Below, one piece after another: positions 4,800 through 55,480 of a stretch of 64,000 nucleotides of DNA. Origin of the DNA: Thermoprotei archaeon (GTDB taxonomy: Archaea > Thermoproteota > Thermoprotei > QMSL01 > B3-G16); NCBI GenBank assembly GCA_021162845.1, contig JAGGXX010000054.1:4537-68536 (forward strand), in the 5' to 3' direction. The notes under the pieces were generated by a model. It saw nothing but the letters and a program-made list of their open reading frames with translations. It was not told where the DNA came from and did not search any database. Position 1 is the stretch's first letter. Each line of letters opens with the position of its first letter. A program made the translations under genes and the position numbers.

Positions 4800-6635
4800 T
4801 TAATCATCTTGCTTCACCCTTACCCGAAGGCTAGGCGTTATTAGGGCCTCGCCCATCTGGGTCATGTATAGTTTGTAGTATGTTCCTTTTCTCGCCATTA
4901 GTTCCTCATGAGTACCCTCCTCAACAACCCTACCACCCTCCAAAACAACAATCCTATCCGCGATGCGGGCCATGGATAACCTATGGGCTATGATTATCGT
5001 GGTCCGTCCAGCCATGAGCTGAGAAAGGGCTCGCTCGATCAGGATCTCAGTATAGGGATCGACGCTGTACATCGCCTCATCAAGTATCAGTATCGGCGGA
5101 TCACGGATCATGCAGCGGGCGATGGATATAAGCTGTTTCTGACCTGTGGAAAGGCCGATGCCTTGCTCGCCTACTTGCGTCTCGTAACCATTAGGTAGGC
5201 GGGATATGAACTCGTGTATTCCGAGCTTCCTGCATACCTCTTCGACTTCTTCGTCTGTTGCATCAGGCCTTCCGATCCTTATATTCTCCCTCACAGTTCC
5301 CGGGAACAGGAATGTTTCTTGGGGGACGAAGCCTATCTGCCTACGGAGGGATCTCTGGGTTATCTTACGTATATCAAGCCCATCTAGGAGTATCCTGCCC
5401 CTAGTGACGTCATAGAAACGCGCTATGAGGCTTACTAGTGTGGTCTTACCAGCTCCTGTAGGGCCTACTATCGCTATCCGCTCACCTGGCCTTATGTGAA
5501 GGCATACATCCCTTAGTACCGGTTGACCTGGTTCGTACTCGAAGTACACGTGATCGAGCACTATCTCACCGCGTGCTCTAGATACCTCTATAGCTCCTGG
5601 CGCGTCCTTTATCTCAGGCTCAACATCTAGTAGGTAGAATACCCTGCTAGCAGCGGCTAAGGCCCCCTGTAGTGAATCATAAAAGCCCATTAAGGTCATT
5701 ATGGGCCTGAAGAAGAAGTTCACGTAGGAAGTGAATGCGACTAATACACCTATCGTAACTCCACCTACGGAGGCTAGATATCCACCGTACCATAGGACTA
5801 TGGTGGATCCCAGGGAGAAGACTATGGGTAATAGGAAGAAGAATATCGTGACCACTTTAACAGCCCGCATGCTGGCTTCAAACGTCTCATGGCTTACCTT
5901 TTGAAAAGCCCTGACGGCGTCTTCTTCCCTTGTATATGCTTGTATCACCCTGACACCAGACACTATCTCCTGAACCCTAGTACTTACATCGGAGATCTTT
6001 TGCCTTACCTGAAGATAGGCCCTCTTAAGGGGACCCCCGAATATGTACGCGATGAGAACTAATAGCGGGATCACAGAGAGAGTGACCAGGGTTAACTGGA
6101 CGCTCATGGCAAACATGGCTGCTATCACTCCTACGAGCGTAAGCGTATCACCTAATAGGGAGAGAAAGCCCCAGACGAACGTGTCTCGAAGGGTGCTAAC
6201 GTCGTTCACTATCCTGGAGATTATGTCGCCAGCTCTCGTCTTACTGAAGAAGGACGTGGATAGATCCTGTATGTGGTTAAATACCTTTTCCCTTAACTTG
6301 TAGACGAATTTATTGCCTATTAGGCCTACTAGATAAGACCTACCCACCATCGTAGCCCATCCTATGACGACTAGCCCCAGATATAGGGCGAATATCCCTA
6401 AGAGTCCATGTAGGTTCCCTTTGACGACGTAATCGTCTATGGCGCTTTTGAGCACTATCGGGCTAGCTAAGTTGGTGAGAGTATTCACTATTACTAGGAC
6501 TACCAGCACCAACATATGTAGCTTAAAAGGTGCTAAAAAGCCGAAGAGCCTCTTTACAACTAGGCGCGTGGGTATCTTAAGCTCAGATGCTTTGCCTTCA
6601 AGAGGTGAGGGGGATGGATGATGATGGGGCCTCAT
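4800..6635 (-). CDS. ABC exporter, fused permease/ATPase subunit (type I exporter, MsbA-like); consensus-like NBD
   Basis: Six-TM N-terminal region, then an NBD with Walker A GPTGAGKTT, signature LSTGQKQ, Walker B ILILDEA and H-loop IIIAHRLS. Confidence 0.8.
   Translation of the reverse strand: MRPHHHPSPSPLEGKASELKIPTRLVVKRLFGFLAPFKLHMLVLVVLVIVNTLTNLASPIVLKSAIDDYVVKGNLHGLLGIFALYLGLVVIGWATMVGRSYLVGLIGNKFVYKLREKVFNHIQDLSTSFFSKTRAGDIISRIVNDVSTLRDTFVWGFLSLLGDTLTLVGVIAAMFAMSVQLTLVTLSVIPLLVLIAYIFGGPLKRAYLQVRQKISDVSTRVQEIVSGVRVIQAYTREEDAVRAFQKVSHETFEASMRAVKVVTIFFFLLPIVFSLGSTIVLWYGGYLASVGGVTIGVLVAFTSYVNFFFRPIMTLMGFYDSLQGALAAASRVFYLLDVEPEIKDAPGAIEVSRARGEIVLDHVYFEYEPGQPVLRDVCLHIRPGERIAIVGPTGAGKTTLVSLIARFYDVTRGRILLDGLDIRKITQRSLRRQIGFVPQETFLFPGTVRENIRIGRPDATDEEVEEVCRKLGIHEFISRLPNGYETQVGEQGIGLSTGQKQLISIARCMIRDPPILILDEAMYSVDPYTEILIERALSQLMAGRTTIIIAHRLSMARIADRIVVLEGGRVVEEGTHEELMARKGTYYKLYMTQMGEALITPSLRVRVKQDD
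4865..4958. repeat. 94-bp segment identical to 6692..6785 (3' coding ends of the two ABC paralogs)
   Basis: Base-by-base comparison by eye: tgtatagtttgtagtatgttccttttctcgccattagttcctcatgagtaccctcctcaacaaccctaccaccctccaaaacaacaatcctatc is identical in both copies. It encodes the same 31-32 aa (DRIVVLEGGRVVEEGTHEELMARKGTYYKLY) in both proteins. Confidence 0.85.
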
Positions 6636-40535: not shown

Positions 40536-40635
40536 GCCGGGGTGCCCGAGTGGACCAAGGGGCTGGCCTGGAGAAGGCCTAGAAAGCCAGTTCCCCATAC
40601 GGGGAGCGCGGGTTCGAATCCCGCCCCCGGCGCCA
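40536..40635 (+). tRNA. tRNA-Ser (class II, long variable arm, G73 discriminator, encoded CCA) with a short (~11 nt) intron in the anticodon loop; anticodon most likely GGA
   Basis: Hand-folded. Acceptor GCCGGGG/CCCCGGC. D arm CCC-GAGTGGACCAA-GGG. Anticodon stem CTGGC/GCCAG enclosing 18 nt (CTGGAG + intron + A). Variable arm hairpin CCCC-ATAC-GGGG. T arm GCGGG-TTCGAAT-CCCGC. Discriminator G, then CCA. A TATA-like ttataaag lies ~45 bp upstream. Confidence 0.75.
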
Positions 40636-48985: not shown

Positions 48986-51862
48986 CTACGGGTTTATAAC
49001 GATATATTCGCCTTTCCGCTTACCATAGGCATAGCCTAAGGCAGTGCCACAGGCTACCCCTAATACGGCTATAACCGATGATATTACAGGCCATGTCCTC
49101 TTCGCTCCCTCATATCTCTCCTTCACTTTCGATAGCTCCTCGTACTTCGCGGTAAGTGTTTGATTCCAAGCCCTTAACGAGTCATATTTTCCGAGAAGTG
49201 TATGATAGTCCTCCAGTAATTGTACATACGTGACATTAAGCTGGAGCAGCTTAGATCTCAATTGCTCGTAATCCCGAGTTAGGTTTCCTAAGTTCATTAG
49301 CGCCAGTGTGTAATTTGTGCTTAACTGGTTGAAGTTAGCGTTGAGACGAAGGTATTTATTCCTTAGCTCCAAGTAATCCTTCTCTAGTCTCTGGAATTCC
49401 TCAAGCAGTGAGCTATACGTCTCATTAAGCTCGGCATAGGTGTCCTTTAACGAGTTGTATTTTGTGTTAAGGGAGTTATACTTAGACAGAAGCGAGTTAT
49501 AGTTCCGCTTAAGTGAGAGGTACTTCTCCACCTCCCTCTCATAAAGGGATTTATACTTGATGTCCGTAAAAGCTGGAACGTCGATTATAAGGGATGTGAG
49601 ACCGTAAACCGTGATATCGCTCTTCCCGACGAGGAGGTCATCATCATATACCTCTATGGTAAGTGAGGTGACGTTGACTAAGTTTAGCTTAACTAGACCC
49701 TCGTCGTTTGCCTTACCGGCGAATAACAAGCGTCCATCTCCGTAGACCTTAATATTAGCGAAGGGAACGACATCGCCCTTTACGGGATCGATAATTCGTA
49801 TATAAACCCCGCTTATGAGCTTCTTAAGATGCACCTCAAGATATGTGATCCCATCCAGTTCCACGGATGGATTTAGATATTCCGTGTAATTCTCGGCACT
49901 CACCTTCACCTGATATATCCCTGCAGGGAGGTTGAAGCTTACACATCCGTTTACGTCAGTGTATGAGGATGAGAGGACAGTACCCCGATTGTCCATGACA
50001 ATGACTTGGGCGTTGGGTACGGGATCCCCTGTAAGCAGATCTACCACATGTGCTCTTAGTTGTATCGGTTCCATGATCATCTTCACGGACTCAGGGGAAA
50101 CAGTTAAGTCCAAGGACGTAACGGTAGGGGCATAACCTTCGTGTTCAGCTATTAAGGTGTAACGCCCACCGCTCAACGTTAGGTTTAGCCAACCCTTAGC
50201 ATTAGTAAGGCCATTAATTATCGTGGTATTACCTTCTATGAGAACCCTAATGTTCACCCCGGAAACGGGCTTTGAGTCTATATCCAGCACCTGGATAAAG
50301 AGCTGTCTACGCTTCGTCATTAAGGCCAGCAGATAACCTACAGTTGCCTTGACGCTCTCAGGGGTGCTCTGGTCTAGAACGGAAAACGCGAAAATTCCTT
50401 TTCCACACATGACCGCAGCAACGGCTTGGTATCTTTCATCTCCCACTGTCACGAACGTATCATAGAGCGAGAAGAGGCAGGGTGCGGAGGCCTTAAGGCT
50501 ATTGGGAGCCATCACGGCAGCCCATACATTCCATGGAGATATGTTCAGCTCATTAACGAGCTTTAGGCCTATATCCGTTAGGACAGCCGCTAATGGTCTA
50601 TCCGTCATCCCATTCCAACAAAAGCCACCCACCGTAAAGTTACTAGCCGCGGATAGGAACGCAGCTAATCCCCCTTCTTCCAGGAGTGACCAGTAGTGCG
50701 CGTGACCATTAGCTACGATGGAGAAAGGATAGCCCGCGATGTTCACTAAGATCCAGCCCTTATCCCTTACACATAGAGCTAGATCCGATATGTATGCATA
50801 TGTAGGAGCAGTGCCATCTGTGATTAAGTACTCATCAGGGATTGGCATGACCGCGCCGTGAAGGTTTATCAGGGTAATGCCGCGAACATCCGATGATATT
50901 AGCCTGTACAGATCAACACTTGAGTTGACTACGTGGTAACTTAAGTTCATGGAGCTTAACTGATCCTCGATATAGGCTAAAGTAGAGGGCATATCGAGCC
51001 CGTACCAGGCGGTGTCATTTATGGCTAATAGGTATACATCCGGTTCCGAGTTAAGTAATACGTGAAGGTATATCAGTGAAGTAAGGGCTATATCCGCCTT
51101 AACGAAATCAGGCTCATGCCATACGCCTACATGCACATAGTAACCCTTACCTAAGGAATAGGCGGCAACGGTCTTGAACGCCCCAAGGTACCCTATGGCC
51201 TCGGTGGAATATAGCGTAAAGAAGGGGTCCACGTTAGTCGAGATGCTGTACGTTGCCGAGACCTTAGTAGGCAATGAGGTACCAGCGATCTTAGAGGCAT
51301 TAGCACCCTCAAAGGTCAACATCGCGTAGTCTAAGGAGCCTGCCCTCTCGATATAACCATTGACTTTAACGCTAAAGTTGAGGGCGTTGAAGAACGTGGA
51401 GACACCAGTTTCCCCTAACTCTACTGATAAATGTTCCTCATCATTAAACGCGTAACTGAACGGTAGGCCCGCTAGGTTAATGAACGTGAATCCTCGCTTA
51501 CTCATATTGACCGCAAGGTCCCTCAAAAAGTTAAGAGCGCCTTCTTCCCCTGAGAGAGCATAGGGCATGGGTACCGGTATCGCGGAACCATGGAGGTTTA
51601 TTATCAGATCCCCTGTAGATGCATTCGCAAGTATGCTCCTAAACGAGGTAAAGTTCCTTATTACCGATATCTCCATCCCATTATCCGTGAGATAGGAAGA
51701 CAGGGGTTGTAGTAGAGAGGGCGATACGTCCCTAAAAGCCCCTGAGGGAATGAATATGAGATATGCACGTCCCTCATATCCATTTCTCGATGAGGTGACG
51801 AGGAAGGGGGTCGCAAGTGAAATTAGCATAAGGGTTAATAAGGTGAGACAATGAATTCTCAT
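48986..51862 (-). CDS. secreted surface (S-layer-associated) glycoprotein with N-terminal signal peptide, beta-rich ectodomain including carboxypeptidase-regulatory-like domain, C-terminal coiled-coil stalk and single C-terminal transmembrane anchor (tetrabrachion-like architecture)
   Basis: Signal-peptide-like MRIHCLTLLTLMLISLATPFLVTSS. More than 20 N-x-S/T sequons. GVNIRVLIEGNTTIINGLTNAKGWLNLTL is a prealbumin-like fold. A ~150-aa coiled coil with YNSL/KYNSL repeats follows. C-terminal TM WPVISSVIAVLGVACGTALGYAYGKRKG. Confidence 0.6.
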   Translation of the reverse strand: MRIHCLTLLTLMLISLATPFLVTSSRNGYEGRAYLIFIPSGAFRDVSPSLLQPLSSYLTDNGMEISVIRNFTSFRSILANASTGDLIINLHGSAIPVPMPYALSGEEGALNFLRDLAVNMSKRGFTFINLAGLPFSYAFNDEEHLSVELGETGVSTFFNALNFSVKVNGYIERAGSLDYAMLTFEGANASKIAGTSLPTKVSATYSISTNVDPFFTLYSTEAIGYLGAFKTVAAYSLGKGYYVHVGVWHEPDFVKADIALTSLIYLHVLLNSEPDVYLLAINDTAWYGLDMPSTLAYIEDQLSSMNLSYHVVNSSVDLYRLISSDVRGITLINLHGAVMPIPDEYLITDGTAPTYAYISDLALCVRDKGWILVNIAGYPFSIVANGHAHYWSLLEEGGLAAFLSAASNFTVGGFCWNGMTDRPLAAVLTDIGLKLVNELNISPWNVWAAVMAPNSLKASAPCLFSLYDTFVTVGDERYQAVAAVMCGKGIFAFSVLDQSTPESVKATVGYLLALMTKRRQLFIQVLDIDSKPVSGVNIRVLIEGNTTIINGLTNAKGWLNLTLSGGRYTLIAEHEGYAPTVTSLDLTVSPESVKMIMEPIQLRAHVVDLLTGDPVPNAQVIVMDNRGTVLSSSYTDVNGCVSFNLPAGIYQVKVSAENYTEYLNPSVELDGITYLEVHLKKLISGVYIRIIDPVKGDVVPFANIKVYGDGRLLFAGKANDEGLVKLNLVNVTSLTIEVYDDDLLVGKSDITVYGLTSLIIDVPAFTDIKYKSLYEREVEKYLSLKRNYNSLLSKYNSLNTKYNSLKDTYAELNETYSSLLEEFQRLEKDYLELRNKYLRLNANFNQLSTNYTLALMNLGNLTRDYEQLRSKLLQLNVTYVQLLEDYHTLLGKYDSLRAWNQTLTAKYEELSKVKERYEGAKRTWPVISSVIAVLGVACGTALGYAYGKRKGEYIVINP

Positions 51863-52067: not shown

Positions 52068-52826
52068 TTGGTGATGAGGGTAATGAAGCAGCCTAATAGG
52101 ATGGAAAAGGTTAAGATGCAATTAATGGTAGTAGAGCGCCTTAGGGCGTTGAAGAAGCTCTACTCATATAGAGAGCTATCTCGAAAGCTAAACATGTCCG
52201 AGACCGTACTCTGTAGGTATGTTAGGGGGAGTCTCCTTCCTGGGTACGTCCTAGCTAAGAAATTATTGCTCTCCATGAGGGAAATGCACGACCTCTCCCT
52301 CCTTATAAGGAGTAGGGTGAGGATTGATGAGGGAGGATACCTAGATCTTACTAACCTGATAGGCGATCCATATATGCTTAAGATCGCAGCAGAGGAAGCT
52401 TACATAAGCTACAGTAATGATGAGGTCACCAAGGTACTTACAGCAGCCGCTAATGGTATACCTCTAGCTACCATGGTAGCATACGTGTTTGGCGTACCTC
52501 TAGTGATAGCTAAGAGGACTAAGGACGTTGGCGTCAAGGAGTTCATAGAGGAGGCCTACATACCAAGAGGATCCCCAATACAGGAGACTTATTACGTACC
52601 CAAACGGGCCCTCACTAAGGATGACAGGGTACTGATAGTGGATGACCTAGCTAGAAGCGGATATACGTTAAGGGCCTTAGTGAACATAATCAGGAAGGCT
52701 GGTAGTGAGCTCGTAGGGATATTCATACTACTAGCGATAGGGAATAGATGGTATAGGACCTTAAAAGACGTTAAGCCAGGTAAAATAAAGGTCCTAGCAG
52801 TCCTTAATGATCAAAGTAAGGGATAA
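52068..52826 (+). CDS. HTH domain fused to a phosphoribosyltransferase (PRTase) domain; PurR/GfcR-like putative regulator
   Basis: N-terminal HTH-like YRELSRKLNMSETVLCRYVRG. C-terminal PRPP-binding motif VLIVDDLARSGYTL. Confidence 0.5.
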   Translation: MVMRVMKQPNRMEKVKMQLMVVERLRALKKLYSYRELSRKLNMSETVLCRYVRGSLLPGYVLAKKLLLSMREMHDLSLLIRSRVRIDEGGYLDLTNLIGDPYMLKIAAEEAYISYSNDEVTKVLTAAANGIPLATMVAYVFGVPLVIAKRTKDVGVKEFIEEAYIPRGSPIQETYYVPKRALTKDDRVLIVDDLARSGYTLRALVNIIRKAGSELVGIFILLAIGNRWYRTLKDVKPGKIKVLAVLNDQSKG

Positions 52827-53489: not shown

Positions 53490-54500
53490 TCACTCTAATT
53501 GTGAACTCACGTAATACATGCTCTGCCTAGCGTCTCTCAAATTAGGCGTCTTGATCACAAGGCCCTTCTTAAGTAGGAGGGAGAGGGCGTATCTGACGGT
53601 TCTAGGTGGGAGCAATGTCCTACGGGCGATGTCCTTTTGCGTTAGAGGACCTTCATATTCTAGTACTTTAAGGACCAGTTTAGCGCTAGGCGGCATCTTG
53701 ATCAGCTCTTTAGCCAGCTCTACCTTCTTATAGAGTCTATCATGTACATGAGAACTCCTCTTTAGGCGTATCAATTTAATGTACTTCCCCATGCCTGTAA
53801 GACATATCCCCTTATGTACCTTACAGCGCAATATACCGTCGGCTATAGCTTCAATATCGCAAGAGCTTTCTATCTCGTTCAGGATCACTGTGGAGTCGCT
53901 TGGGACTACCAGGGGCCTCCTGGTTAAATCCATTGAGTTGACCGGAGTTACGACGAAAGCCTTAGTACCGATGAGCATTAAGGGGCCTCCAGCGGACATG
54001 GAATATGCGGTCGAGCCTATCGGCGTGGCCGCTATGACTCCATCGGCCATATCGCGCCATATGTACTCCCCGTTAACCCAAAGGCCGTATTTCATAAGCG
54101 TAGCGCTCTTTGAAGGGAATATGCATATCTCGTTCACGGCCCATAGCTCCACCTCGGAGTCGACGAGACCTCTTATCAGCTCGCTCTTCTCCAGCTTATA
54201 ATCCTCCGAGAATAACCTTTCAGCGACCCACCCTAAGTCTTTGAAAGTGATATCGGTTAAGAAGCCTATGCTATTCGCATAGTTCACGCCCAATACAGGT
54301 CTCTCGAAGATTCTCAGTTCGTGATATGCCCTCAAGACCGTCTTATCGTCACCTATCACTAAGGCGATATCGTAGTCACAGGACATTTCCTTCGGGAATA
54401 GTACTTCCATCCCTAGGGAGGTAAGGCGGCGTATTATGTGATCTGCTTTACTTTTTAATGAGTTATCCAGATATACCAGGGCCTTCATATGAATTCGCAC
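53490..54500 (-). CDS. nadK: NAD kinase fused to a C-terminal winged-HTH (MarR/TrmB-like) domain
   Basis: NAD kinase motifs are present: NYANSIGFLTD (NxGxLGFL) and DGVIAATPIGSTAYSMSAGGP. The GGDG region reads IGDDKT. The last ~80 aa, KLVLKVLEYEGPLTQKDIARRTLLPPRTVRYALSLLLKKGLVIK, are a clear HTH. Confidence 0.7.
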   Translation of the reverse strand: MRIHMKALVYLDNSLKSKADHIIRRLTSLGMEVLFPKEMSCDYDIALVIGDDKTVLRAYHELRIFERPVLGVNYANSIGFLTDITFKDLGWVAERLFSEDYKLEKSELIRGLVDSEVELWAVNEICIFPSKSATLMKYGLWVNGEYIWRDMADGVIAATPIGSTAYSMSAGGPLMLIGTKAFVVTPVNSMDLTRRPLVVPSDSTVILNEIESSCDIEAIADGILRCKVHKGICLTGMGKYIKLIRLKRSSHVHDRLYKKVELAKELIKMPPSAKLVLKVLEYEGPLTQKDIARRTLLPPRTVRYALSLLLKKGLVIKTPNLRDARQSMYYVSSQLE

Positions 54501-54724
54501 CTCGCATGATTTGATGCCGGTGATGAATCCTGGCTTACGTGTCTAAGTAATATCTTCAATAAGTCTATTAAAATCAAATCACATCATGAGGATCTTAAGC
54601 AAGATGCCTTTAATGATTTGATCTGGCCTAAAGGAAGGGTGAGGAGGTAAAATGTTCATTGTAAAGTAATATTCATGAGAAGTTTGATCTTGTTAACAAG
54701 CGGGGTGAGGTCAGTTTCCGTTGC

Positions 54725-54982
54725 TTAACATTTATTGCTAGGAAGTTTCATTTGGCGCCTTAGTTTTTTAATCCCTTCTTCAAATACCCTGTCTTCGTCG
54801 ATTTCGCCGAGTCTGGAAGAGTATAGCTCTATGGGGTCTATTAGTTTACGGGGTACTAGTATTATTCTATTGTCCTTAATCGTTACTATGAGTTCATCTC
54901 CTTCTTTGATCTCTGCTTTGTGCCTGATACTTGCCGGAAGTTTTAATATTCCGCCTTTATACACCTTAATGATCTCGTACAT
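54725..54982 (-). CDS. AbrB/SpoVT (swapped-hairpin) domain protein, VapB/MazE-type antitoxin-like
   Basis: N-terminus MYEIIKVYKGGILKLPASIRHKAEIKEGDELIV is typical of SpoVT/AbrB antitoxins. 85 aa. Confidence 0.55.
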   Translation of the reverse strand: MYEIIKVYKGGILKLPASIRHKAEIKEGDELIVTIKDNRIILVPRKLIDPIELYSSRLGEIDEDRVFEEGIKKLRRQMKLPSNKC

Positions 54983-55030: not shown

Positions 55031-55480
55031 ATGAGAGGATCATTGCTTTGTGATACCATATGTGTCTGGGCTCTCTATTTTCGAGATTCAGCTTATCGTA
55101 AGCACGTACTTAAGTTGAGGTCGAGTAATCTACTGACAATACCTGATATATGCCTTATAGAGGCGTCCTACCCGATATATGAGGCTAAAGGTCTTGATGA
55201 GCTAAAGAGGTATTCTAGGTTTGTTGAGAACATAATCCTAGCACATAACATTAAGGTGTTGACCGTATCTTTAGAGGATCTAGCTAAAGCCTTAAATTTA
55301 GCTGTAGTCAACCCTGAGGTCTTTATAGATGAGGAGGGCAACCTATGCTTATTTGACGCATTGATAACCTCGATATGGATGAGGACTAATGTCCCTCTTG
55401 TTACGTCGGATAAGAGGCTCATAGAGTTCGGTGAGAGAAGGGGATTAAGTGTAATAAGGTTACGAAAGGCTAAAGTATAG
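55031..55480 (+). CDS. PIN-domain (VapC-like) ribonuclease
   Basis: Acidic residues in PIN positions: LLCDTICVWALYF (Asp near the N-terminus), ...LFDALITSIW... and ...VTSDKRL.... 149 aa. Confidence 0.55.
   Translation: MRGSLLCDTICVWALYFRDSAYRKHVLKLRSSNLLTIPDICLIEASYPIYEAKGLDELKRYSRFVENIILAHNIKVLTVSLEDLAKALNLAVVNPEVFIDEEGNLCLFDALITSIWMRTNVPLVTSDKRLIEFGERRGLSVIRLRKAKV

Follow-up and report, generated by a model that had tools for sequence, protein, structure and literature searches.

A NAD kinase joined to a C-terminal MarR-type winged helix-turn-helix domain: a fusion protein conserved in archaea

Introduction

Can an enzyme that makes NADP also be a DNA-binding protein? This question is raised by a gene found in a 64,000-nucleotide stretch of a Thermoprotei archaeon genome (assembly GCA_021162845.1, contig JAGGXX010000054.1); the whole stretch is referred to here as the window. 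An earlier note on this DNA, made from the sequence alone, described one open reading frame (ORF) encoding a kinase (NadK) for nicotinamide adenine dinucleotide (NAD), followed at the C-terminus by a helix-turn-helix of the winged type (wHTH). It offered two explanations: an enzyme that also binds DNA, for example for NAD(P)-responsive transcriptional control, or two genes merged by a frameshift. No way of making NADP other than through NAD kinase is known, and no transcriptional regulator of NAD(P) metabolism is known to have been described in archaea. Here, I report that the NadK-wHTH fusion is genuine, that it is conserved across several archaeal phyla, and that it combines an intact NAD-binding site with a basic wHTH of the MarR type. 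Enzyme-regulator fusions are already known. A full-text literature search found no description of a NadK-HTH fusion, and the pairing of NadK with a wHTH appears to be undescribed.

A Conserved Fusion

The ORF, previously given as 53490..54500, lies on the minus strand. This frame is real: it is uninterrupted and opens at GTG 54500, and the other two frames across the same stretch contain 27 and 37 stop codons. The given start needs correction, though. Translation most likely starts at ATG 54488, 12 nt inside, rather than at the GTG, because homologs begin there, four codons past the GTG, and because the GTG sits within a GAGGTG element (54498..54503, minus strand), a putative Shine-Dalgarno-like sequence 9 nt upstream of the ATG. 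The resulting coding sequence (53490..54488, minus strand; stop codon 53490-53492) encodes 332 amino acids (aa). The public gene call (P0001) is also 332 aa long and 100% identical to the window protein, and an identical protein has been called on an independent metagenome contig. In the following, Pfam ranges and the residue positions used for comparisons are numbered in the 336-aa frame from the GTG, and the feature and model ranges in the 332-aa frame from the ATG (four lower).

The presence of a NAD kinase and a C-terminal wHTH in one ORF is borne out by Pfam matches, by a structural model, and by homologs. The HTH peptide quoted in the earlier note, LTQKDIARRTLLPPRTVRYALSLLLKKGLV, is present in the ORF translation. 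Pfam assigns residues 33-101 to the NAD_kinase N-domain (PF01513; E=6e-10) and residues 123-230 to NAD_kinase_C (PF20143; E=2e-21), both above the curated cut-offs, and residues 269-326 to MarR_2 (E=9e-10; 39 bits, the cut-off being 27). The Pfam MarR model also matches, with 27.8 bits against 24.6. An AlphaFold2 model built on a 39-sequence alignment has a predicted local distance difference test (pLDDT) score of 87.9 and comprises a full NadK fold, a connecting helix (residues 247-263), and a canonical wHTH; the pLDDT falls to about 61-63 in the linker blocks. In Foldseek, the NadK part aligns with the whole chains of solved NadKs (E about 1e-25; target-normalized template modeling (TM) score about 0.8). 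No solved NadK chain among the Foldseek and structure matches carries an extra wHTH.

Where do the two modules meet? The NadK body consists of an N-terminal domain on the phosphoryl-donor side (residues 1-100; 54189..54488, minus strand) and a C-terminal beta-sandwich for NAD binding and oligomerization (residues 101-241; 53766..54188, minus strand). It is followed by a return strand and the connecting helix (residues 242-264; 53697..53765, minus strand), which are the true domain junction and correspond to the C-terminal helix of ordinary NadKs. The MarR-type wHTH (residues 265-327; 53508..53696, minus strand) begins at the point where ordinary NadKs end. Thus, the junction lies at about 53700-53765 and not at ~54750-54800 as formerly proposed, a range which is outside the ORF, in the upstream AbrB/MazE-like antitoxin gene.

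Is the fusion specific to this genome? The earlier note had suggested comparing orthologs. A protein search gave 956 matches, and the 120 listed homologs are 40-67% identical to the window protein and almost all 320-350 aa long. The family counts below (n=121) refer to the window protein and these 120 homologs. Alignment revealed that both modules are in frame and that the full 60-residue wHTH is present in 120 of the 120. The listed homologs come from Thermoprotei, Nitrososphaerales, Aigarchaeota, Brockarchaeota, Geothermarchaeota, Njordarchaeia, and Thermoplasmata. In a scan of species genomes, the fusion was found among the listed matches in Nitrosopumilus, Nitrosopelagicus, Nitrosotalea, Nitrososphaera, Thermofilaceae, Thorarchaeota, and Methanomassiliicoccales. 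Thus, the fusion spans Thermoproteota, ammonia-oxidising Nitrososphaeria, Aigarchaeota, Brockarchaeota, Asgard archaea, and Thermoplasmata; it is conserved across several archaeal phyla and is not genome-specific.

The connecting helix is also conserved across the family (K258, K259, L262, A263, E264, E265, and L266), and K259 and the hydrophobic position 260 are common to the fusion family and canonical NadKs. The longest homopolymer at the domain junction is 4 nt. With the listed homologs all in frame, a conserved junction helix, no longer homopolymer, and many stop codons in the other frames, the idea of a frameshift merging two genes does not hold. The NadK-wHTH fusion is genuine and is not a sequencing error.

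The wHTH Module and Its Standalone Relatives

What kind of domain has been added to the enzyme? The module is composed of helices H1 (residues 267-279), H2 (284-291), and H3 (295-308) and a wing (311-327). H1 carries the signature PPSAKLVLKxLEYEGP, which is highly conserved across phyla. The predicted recognition helix, PRTVRYALSLLLKK (53565..53606, minus strand), contains R-T-V-R, with little or no variation across the family. The beta-hairpin wing (53508..53558, minus strand) contains L-R-D-A-R-Q, whose D and R are invariant (121/121) and which was aligned with D-R-R of the MarR protein NMB1585. The D-x-R of the MarR wing is conserved and contacts the minor groove. No other part of the fusion protein is as well conserved as the wHTH: its mean pairwise identity is 65%, compared with 56% in the C-domain of NadK and 32% in the N-domain. 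The wHTH has a net charge of +8 (family mean +7.2), versus -4 for the NadK body.

When modeled alone, the wHTH has a pLDDT of 90.5. The top 50 Foldseek matches of this isolated model belong to the MarR family, apart from a small number of uncharacterised proteins with a wHTH, ST1889 among them. Several of the MarR-family matches were solved with DNA, and the cores superimpose with a root-mean-square deviation of 1.0-1.5 Å over 65-69 columns. Only about 45% of the MarR targets are covered (target-normalized TM scores of 0.39-0.52) because the MarR dimerization helices are absent here. Full MarR-family regulators are about 140 aa long and dimerize through their N- and C-terminal helices, while the present domain has about 65 residues and one preceding helix and does not possess the dimerization interface of the MarR type. 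Thus, the C-terminal HTH first noticed in the sequence is a strongly basic wHTH of the MarR type with a D-x-R wing.

Does this domain occur elsewhere? With the 83-residue domain as query, an exhaustive HMMER search yielded 983 representatives at E<=1e-3, of which 160 reached E<=1e-10. The best 150 domain matches include about 40 NadK fusions (320-360 aa) and about 90 proteins shorter than 140 aa; most of the latter resemble standalone wHTH proteins, and some are fragments of NadK fusions. The standalone proteins (P0128-P0140 and P0142-P0289; loci L091-L095) belong to a large archaeal wHTH subfamily; they are about 90 aa in size (range about 75-130 aa), match the NadK-fused domain at 50-65% identity, and have the signature PPSAKLVxKxLEYEGPLTQ...RTVRYAL...DARQ in common. 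Many of them are haloarchaeal and have acidic N-terminal tails. One protein, P0202, has seven tandem wHTH copies in 642 aa, and a 684-aa protein is also among the best 150. No NCBIfam model matches the PPSAKLV wHTH subfamily. The possibility that haloarchaea have split nadK and wHTH genes was considered and rejected, since their standalone wHTH genes are not adjacent to nadK.

The NadK Module

Is the enzyme part an ordinary NadK? I compared the 121 fusion proteins with 67 ordinary NadKs (65 from bacteria and two from methanogens; loci L015-L082). The canonical invariants of the NAD pocket are all retained: N123, D153-G154, T159-P160, G162-S163-T164-A165-Y166, S169-A170-G171-G172-P173, and D221. 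In the window protein, these include the NE motif (N119-E120 in the shorter frame; 54129..54134, minus strand), whose N is invariant in canonical NadKs and in the fusion family, and the Gly-rich NAD-binding motif DGVIAATPIGSTAYSMSAGGP (residues 149-169; 53982..54044, minus strand), which is conserved as in canonical NadKs.

In the phosphoryl-donor domain, the least conserved part, the position of the GGDG motif is occupied by G-D-D-K-T (G46-D47-D48-K49-T50; 54339..54353, minus strand), aligned with GGDGS of Pseudomonas aeruginosa NadK. Only the first G and the catalytic-type D of this degenerate motif (G50 and D52 in the longer frame) are invariant in all 121 fusion sequences. Family-wide, the motif is mostly G-x-D-[RK], and the full G-G-D-G is kept in only about 19 of the 121. 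Thus, the former statement that the ORF has all core NadK motifs is right for NE and for DG..TP.GSTAY..SAGGP, which are intact, but not for GGDG, which is non-canonical (GDDK). Judged by these alignments, the fusion family is a strongly derived NadK lineage.

Has the donor site decayed? Among pairs of fusion proteins that are 60-75% identical overall, positions 51, 54, 73, 76, and 79 have identities of 0.79-0.99, compared with an N-domain mean of 0.51. Since the changed loop positions are conserved within clades, the pattern points to lineage-specific constraint on the altered donor loop and argues for continued function rather than decay.

Possible Functions of the Fusion Protein

What may such a protein do? 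The conserved fusion and the basic MarR-type wHTH with its D-x-R make both DNA binding and NAD(P)-responsive control, as first suggested from the sequence, reasonable hypotheses. The explanation I favor, to which I would give a little short of an even chance, is that NadK-wHTH may be a bifunctional protein, a NAD kinase and an NAD(P)-responsive DNA-binding regulator, like RbkR, BirA, and NadR. In this protein, a full NAD-kinase-fold module is joined via its own C-terminal helix to a minimal MarR-type wHTH. The NadK body would oligomerize like ordinary NadKs, replacing the dimerization that the minimal wHTH lacks, and the oligomer would display two basic wHTHs to DNA. An occupied NAD(H)/NADP(H) pocket may shift the geometry of the wHTHs, so that DNA binding and the transcription of target genes would track the NAD(P) state. 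NAD would probably still be phosphorylated, via the remodeled phosphoryl-donor loop G-x-D-[RK]. The model for this explanation is RbkR, a MarR-type wHTH fused to a riboflavin kinase, which is both enzyme and regulator; most of the archaeal genomes examined have no other RibK ortholog, and BirA and NadR are its bacterial analogues (PMC5397151). In favor of the bifunctional protein are the Pfam and structural matches of both modules, the conservation of the fusion and above all of its wHTH, the charge and D-x-R of the latter, the retained invariants of the NAD site, the clade-wise conservation of the altered donor loop, and the single placement of the gene among housekeeping genes.

Several observations weigh against the bifunctional protein. 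Seven positions that are invariant or nearly so in canonical NadKs are lost or variable in the fusion family. In the GGDG motif, G51 (67/67 in canonical NadKs) is kept in 60/121 fusion proteins and G53 (67/67) in 20/121, with R or K in 90. In the GxNxGxLGFL loop, N73 (66/67) is kept in 42/121, G76 (67/67) in 15/121, and G79 (67/67) in 62/121. R106 (64/67) and H190 (65/67) are absent from the fusion family. Thus, the kinase activity is not assured. All of the 18 NCBIfam NadK models score below their cut-offs, the best being NF002521 with 125.5 bits against 309. The low-confidence linker of the AlphaFold2 model leaves the orientation of the wHTH unfixed. Standalone wHTHs of the subfamily occur without a NadK nearby, and therefore the function of the wHTH does not depend on NadK. 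Gene neighborhoods are not conserved, with no link to NAD biosynthesis genes among the loci compared. Finally, the upstream regions of 18 orthologs share no operator or palindrome and have in common only elements resembling the transcription factor B recognition element (BRE) and the TATA box.

The remodeled donor site may also be explained by a regulator that only senses. In this case, catalysis would have been lost, the NadK fold would sense NAD(H)/NADP(H) and control the wHTH, and a separate canonical NadK would make NADP. GGDG has been reported as highly conserved and probably catalytic, GGDGT being present in 124 of 127 archaeal NADKs surveyed, and the residue following GGDG determines whether NADKs use ATP or polyphosphate (PMC3769651). 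The variability of five donor-loop positions (G51, G53, N73, G76, and G79; 66-67/67 in canonical NadKs), the rarity of a full G-G-D-G in the family, and the distribution of conservation, lowest in the N-domain (32%) and highest in the NAD pocket and the wHTH, would all suit a sensor. The mostly inactive Nudix domain of NrtR and the non-catalytic ROK repressors would be its parallels. However, the first Gly and the catalytic-type Asp of GGDG are invariant, some members retain the full motif, and the clade-wise conservation of the changed positions argues against a loop set free from function. The fusion is also present in Nitrosopelagicus and Nitrosopumilus, whose genomes are small and streamlined, and a spare pseudo-enzyme together with a separate NadK would be less parsimonious there. 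I regard a regulator without catalysis as doubtful.

Alternatively, the protein may be a NAD kinase with a housekeeping task, and its wHTH may serve a purpose other than transcriptional control, such as protein-protein contact, control of the oligomer, localisation to nucleic acid or polyphosphate, or autoinhibition. The solitary position of the gene among housekeeping genes, without a conserved regulon-like context, is consistent with this, as is the failure to find a conserved operator upstream of the 18 orthologs. The unusually high cross-phylum conservation of the wHTH, including helix 1, would sooner be expected from contact with a conserved macromolecular partner than from binding to lineage-specific operators, and the domain is missing the MarR dimerization helices. 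On the other hand, its best structural matches are DNA-binding MarR regulators, several of them in complex with DNA, the D-x-R wing and the R-T-V-R at the start of the recognition helix are invariant, and the domain is strongly positive. That the same domain occurs as small standalone proteins fits an autonomous nucleic-acid-binding module. Such a housekeeping kinase seems unlikely.

Lastly, an artefact in which a frameshift or assembly error joined a NadK gene to an adjacent small MarR-type gene is practically out of the question: wHTH genes of the same subfamily do stand alone in other archaea, but the identical in-frame architecture recurs in the 120 listed homologs from independent assemblies of at least four phyla, the identical protein is encoded on an independent metagenome contig, and the conserved junction helix, the beginning of the wHTH just where ordinary NadKs end, the junction homopolymers of 4 nt at most, and the 27-37 stops in alternative frames all contradict it.

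Gene Neighborhood and Upstream DNA

No gene neighborhood is conserved across phyla, and the NadK-wHTH gene usually stands alone among housekeeping genes. Guilt by association was of no use, as the neighborhoods differ between phyla and only local synteny is kept. In the locus of the closest relative among the matches listed (67% identity; L090), the downstream genes for a GNAT protein, an HTH-phosphoribosyltransferase, a large surface protein, and HerA are shared with the window. In ammonia oxidisers, a gene for a PfkB-family kinase lies directly upstream in the same direction (L002 8798-9676 and L007 4965-5846), and a CTP synthase gene lies convergent downstream. Neither the 64 kb window nor the roughly 300 kb of related loci contains a second NadK.

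Immediately upstream of NadK-wHTH, the window has divergent genes for an AbrB/MazE-like antitoxin (54725-54982, minus strand) and a PIN-domain toxin (55031-55480, plus strand). Neither L090 nor L083, both orthologous loci, has this pair at the corresponding position; a gene for an MFS transporter lies upstream there instead. The pair therefore looks like a local insertion.

Two genes from NadK-wHTH, at 52068-52826 on the plus strand, a 252-aa protein with an N-terminal HTH-like segment and a phosphoribosyltransferase domain is encoded. It matches NCBIfam PRK08558, adenine phosphoribosyltransferase, with 247 bits, above the cut-off, and weakly matches Bacillus subtilis PurR. It is a second fusion of an enzyme-like domain and an HTH near NadK-wHTH, and its synteny is kept in L090. 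Next, at 48986-51862 on the minus strand, lies the gene for a protein of 958 aa, secreted or located at the surface, in which CarboxypepD_reg/PEGA-like domains are repeated; the protein also has a membrane anchor and a C-terminal coiled-coil region rich in Asn and Leu. A HerA/DUF87 ATPase gene follows in the public contig, and the arrangement is the same in L090. Farther away, a tRNA gene of about 100 nt was found at 40536-40635 on the plus strand (Rfam tRNA, 47 bits). ARAGORN did not name its anticodon; it is probably an intron-containing archaeal tRNA.

Does the upstream DNA contain sites for the protein itself? A cluster of ATCAAATCA(T) is present at 54506..54622, spanning 117 bp of the region upstream of NadK-wHTH, with direct copies at 54506-54515 and 54613-54622 and an inverted copy at 54573-54581. 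These three are the only exact copies in the window. The sequence was not found upstream of the two closest orthologs. The copies are possible candidate binding sites, although their membership in the NadK-wHTH feature is doubtful because they are not conserved in orthologs. In locus L083, a perfect palindrome, GGCAATAATTGCC (5968-5980), is located at about -32 to -20 from the ATG of P0003, a 55%-identical ortholog; it was not seen in the window or in L090. These upstream regions do not support an autoregulatory operator: no palindrome is common to the 18 orthologs, and neither ATCAAATCA nor GGCAATAATTGCC is shared.

Implications and Comparison with Known Systems

If the bifunctional protein exists, how far might its role extend? 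In a bolder version, which I consider improbable as it stands, the fusion would be the missing regulator of NAD(P) homeostasis in archaea. The remodeled NadK would read NAD(H)/NADP(H) and, through the deeply conserved PPSAKLV wHTH, pass the signal to promoters conserved as a set among ammonia oxidisers, other TACK archaea, Asgard archaea, and Thermoplasmata, and the standalone relatives among the 983 representatives would form an unrecognised family of regulators binding the same type of site. The conserved NadK-wHTH is a concrete candidate for a link between the NAD/NADP state and gene expression, with RbkR as the flavin equivalent. The family also indicates that a large NadK lineage tolerates the loss of supposedly universal GGDG glycines, which is relevant to rules that infer the phosphoryl donor from this motif. 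Public names for the fusion proteins are inconsistent, including 'NAD(+)/NADH kinase', 'sugar kinase', and 'MarR family transcriptional regulator', and the names of protein clusters yielded no annotation from a cultured organism. The inconsistent names and the loss of GGDG are relevant to automated annotation.

How does the fusion compare with known proteins? It shares with canonical NadK/PpnK (P. aeruginosa 7MH7 and Archaeoglobus fulgidus 1SUW) the two-domain fold, NE, DG..TP.GSTAY..SAGGP, D221, the G and D of GGDG, and the C-terminal helix. It differs from them in having about 70 extra C-terminal residues that form the wHTH, a GGDG relaxed to G-x-D-[RK], an altered GxNxGxLGFL loop, and no R106 or H190. 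With MarR regulators (MepR, MftR, HpaR, and Escherichia coli MarR, and the archaeal ST1889, PDB 2D1H), it shares the H1-b-H2-H3-wing topology and the D-x-R wing. In contrast to these, the NadK fusion has only the wHTH core, with a distinctive PPSAKLVxKxLEYEGPLTQ signature, and lacks the N- and C-terminal helices for dimerization and the ligand pocket, a role that presumably falls to the NadK body.

NadR, NrtR, and Rex are bacterial proteins that combine a DNA-binding HTH with a domain for NAD-related nucleotides. Of these, NadR doubles as an enzyme, and in NrtR an enzyme-like domain precedes the C-terminal wHTH. However, their sensor folds are unrelated (NMNAT/RNK, Nudix, and Rossmann, respectively), and they have no sequence relationship to NadK-wHTH. 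The MJ0917-type fusion of NADP phosphatase and NAD kinase in Methanococcales (NCBIfam NF010678) resembles the present case in that an archaeal NadK is linked to a second module for NADP homeostasis. Its partner is an N-terminal phosphatase enzyme and not a DNA-binding domain, and the NadK part of the window protein matches NF010678 with 112 bits, far below the cut-off of 493.

The direct precedent is RbkR, in which an archaeal small-molecule kinase that makes a cofactor is combined with a MarR-family wHTH and which is found in Thermoproteota, Thaumarchaeota, and Euryarchaeota. In RbkR, the wHTH is N-terminal and the kinase fold is unrelated; for RbkR, the operators, the regulon, the activity, and a complex with DNA are established, while the NadK fusion is known here from sequences and models. 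Still, RbkR provides a mechanistic template for NadK-wHTH, as the substrate and product of the enzyme modulate DNA binding (PMC5397151).

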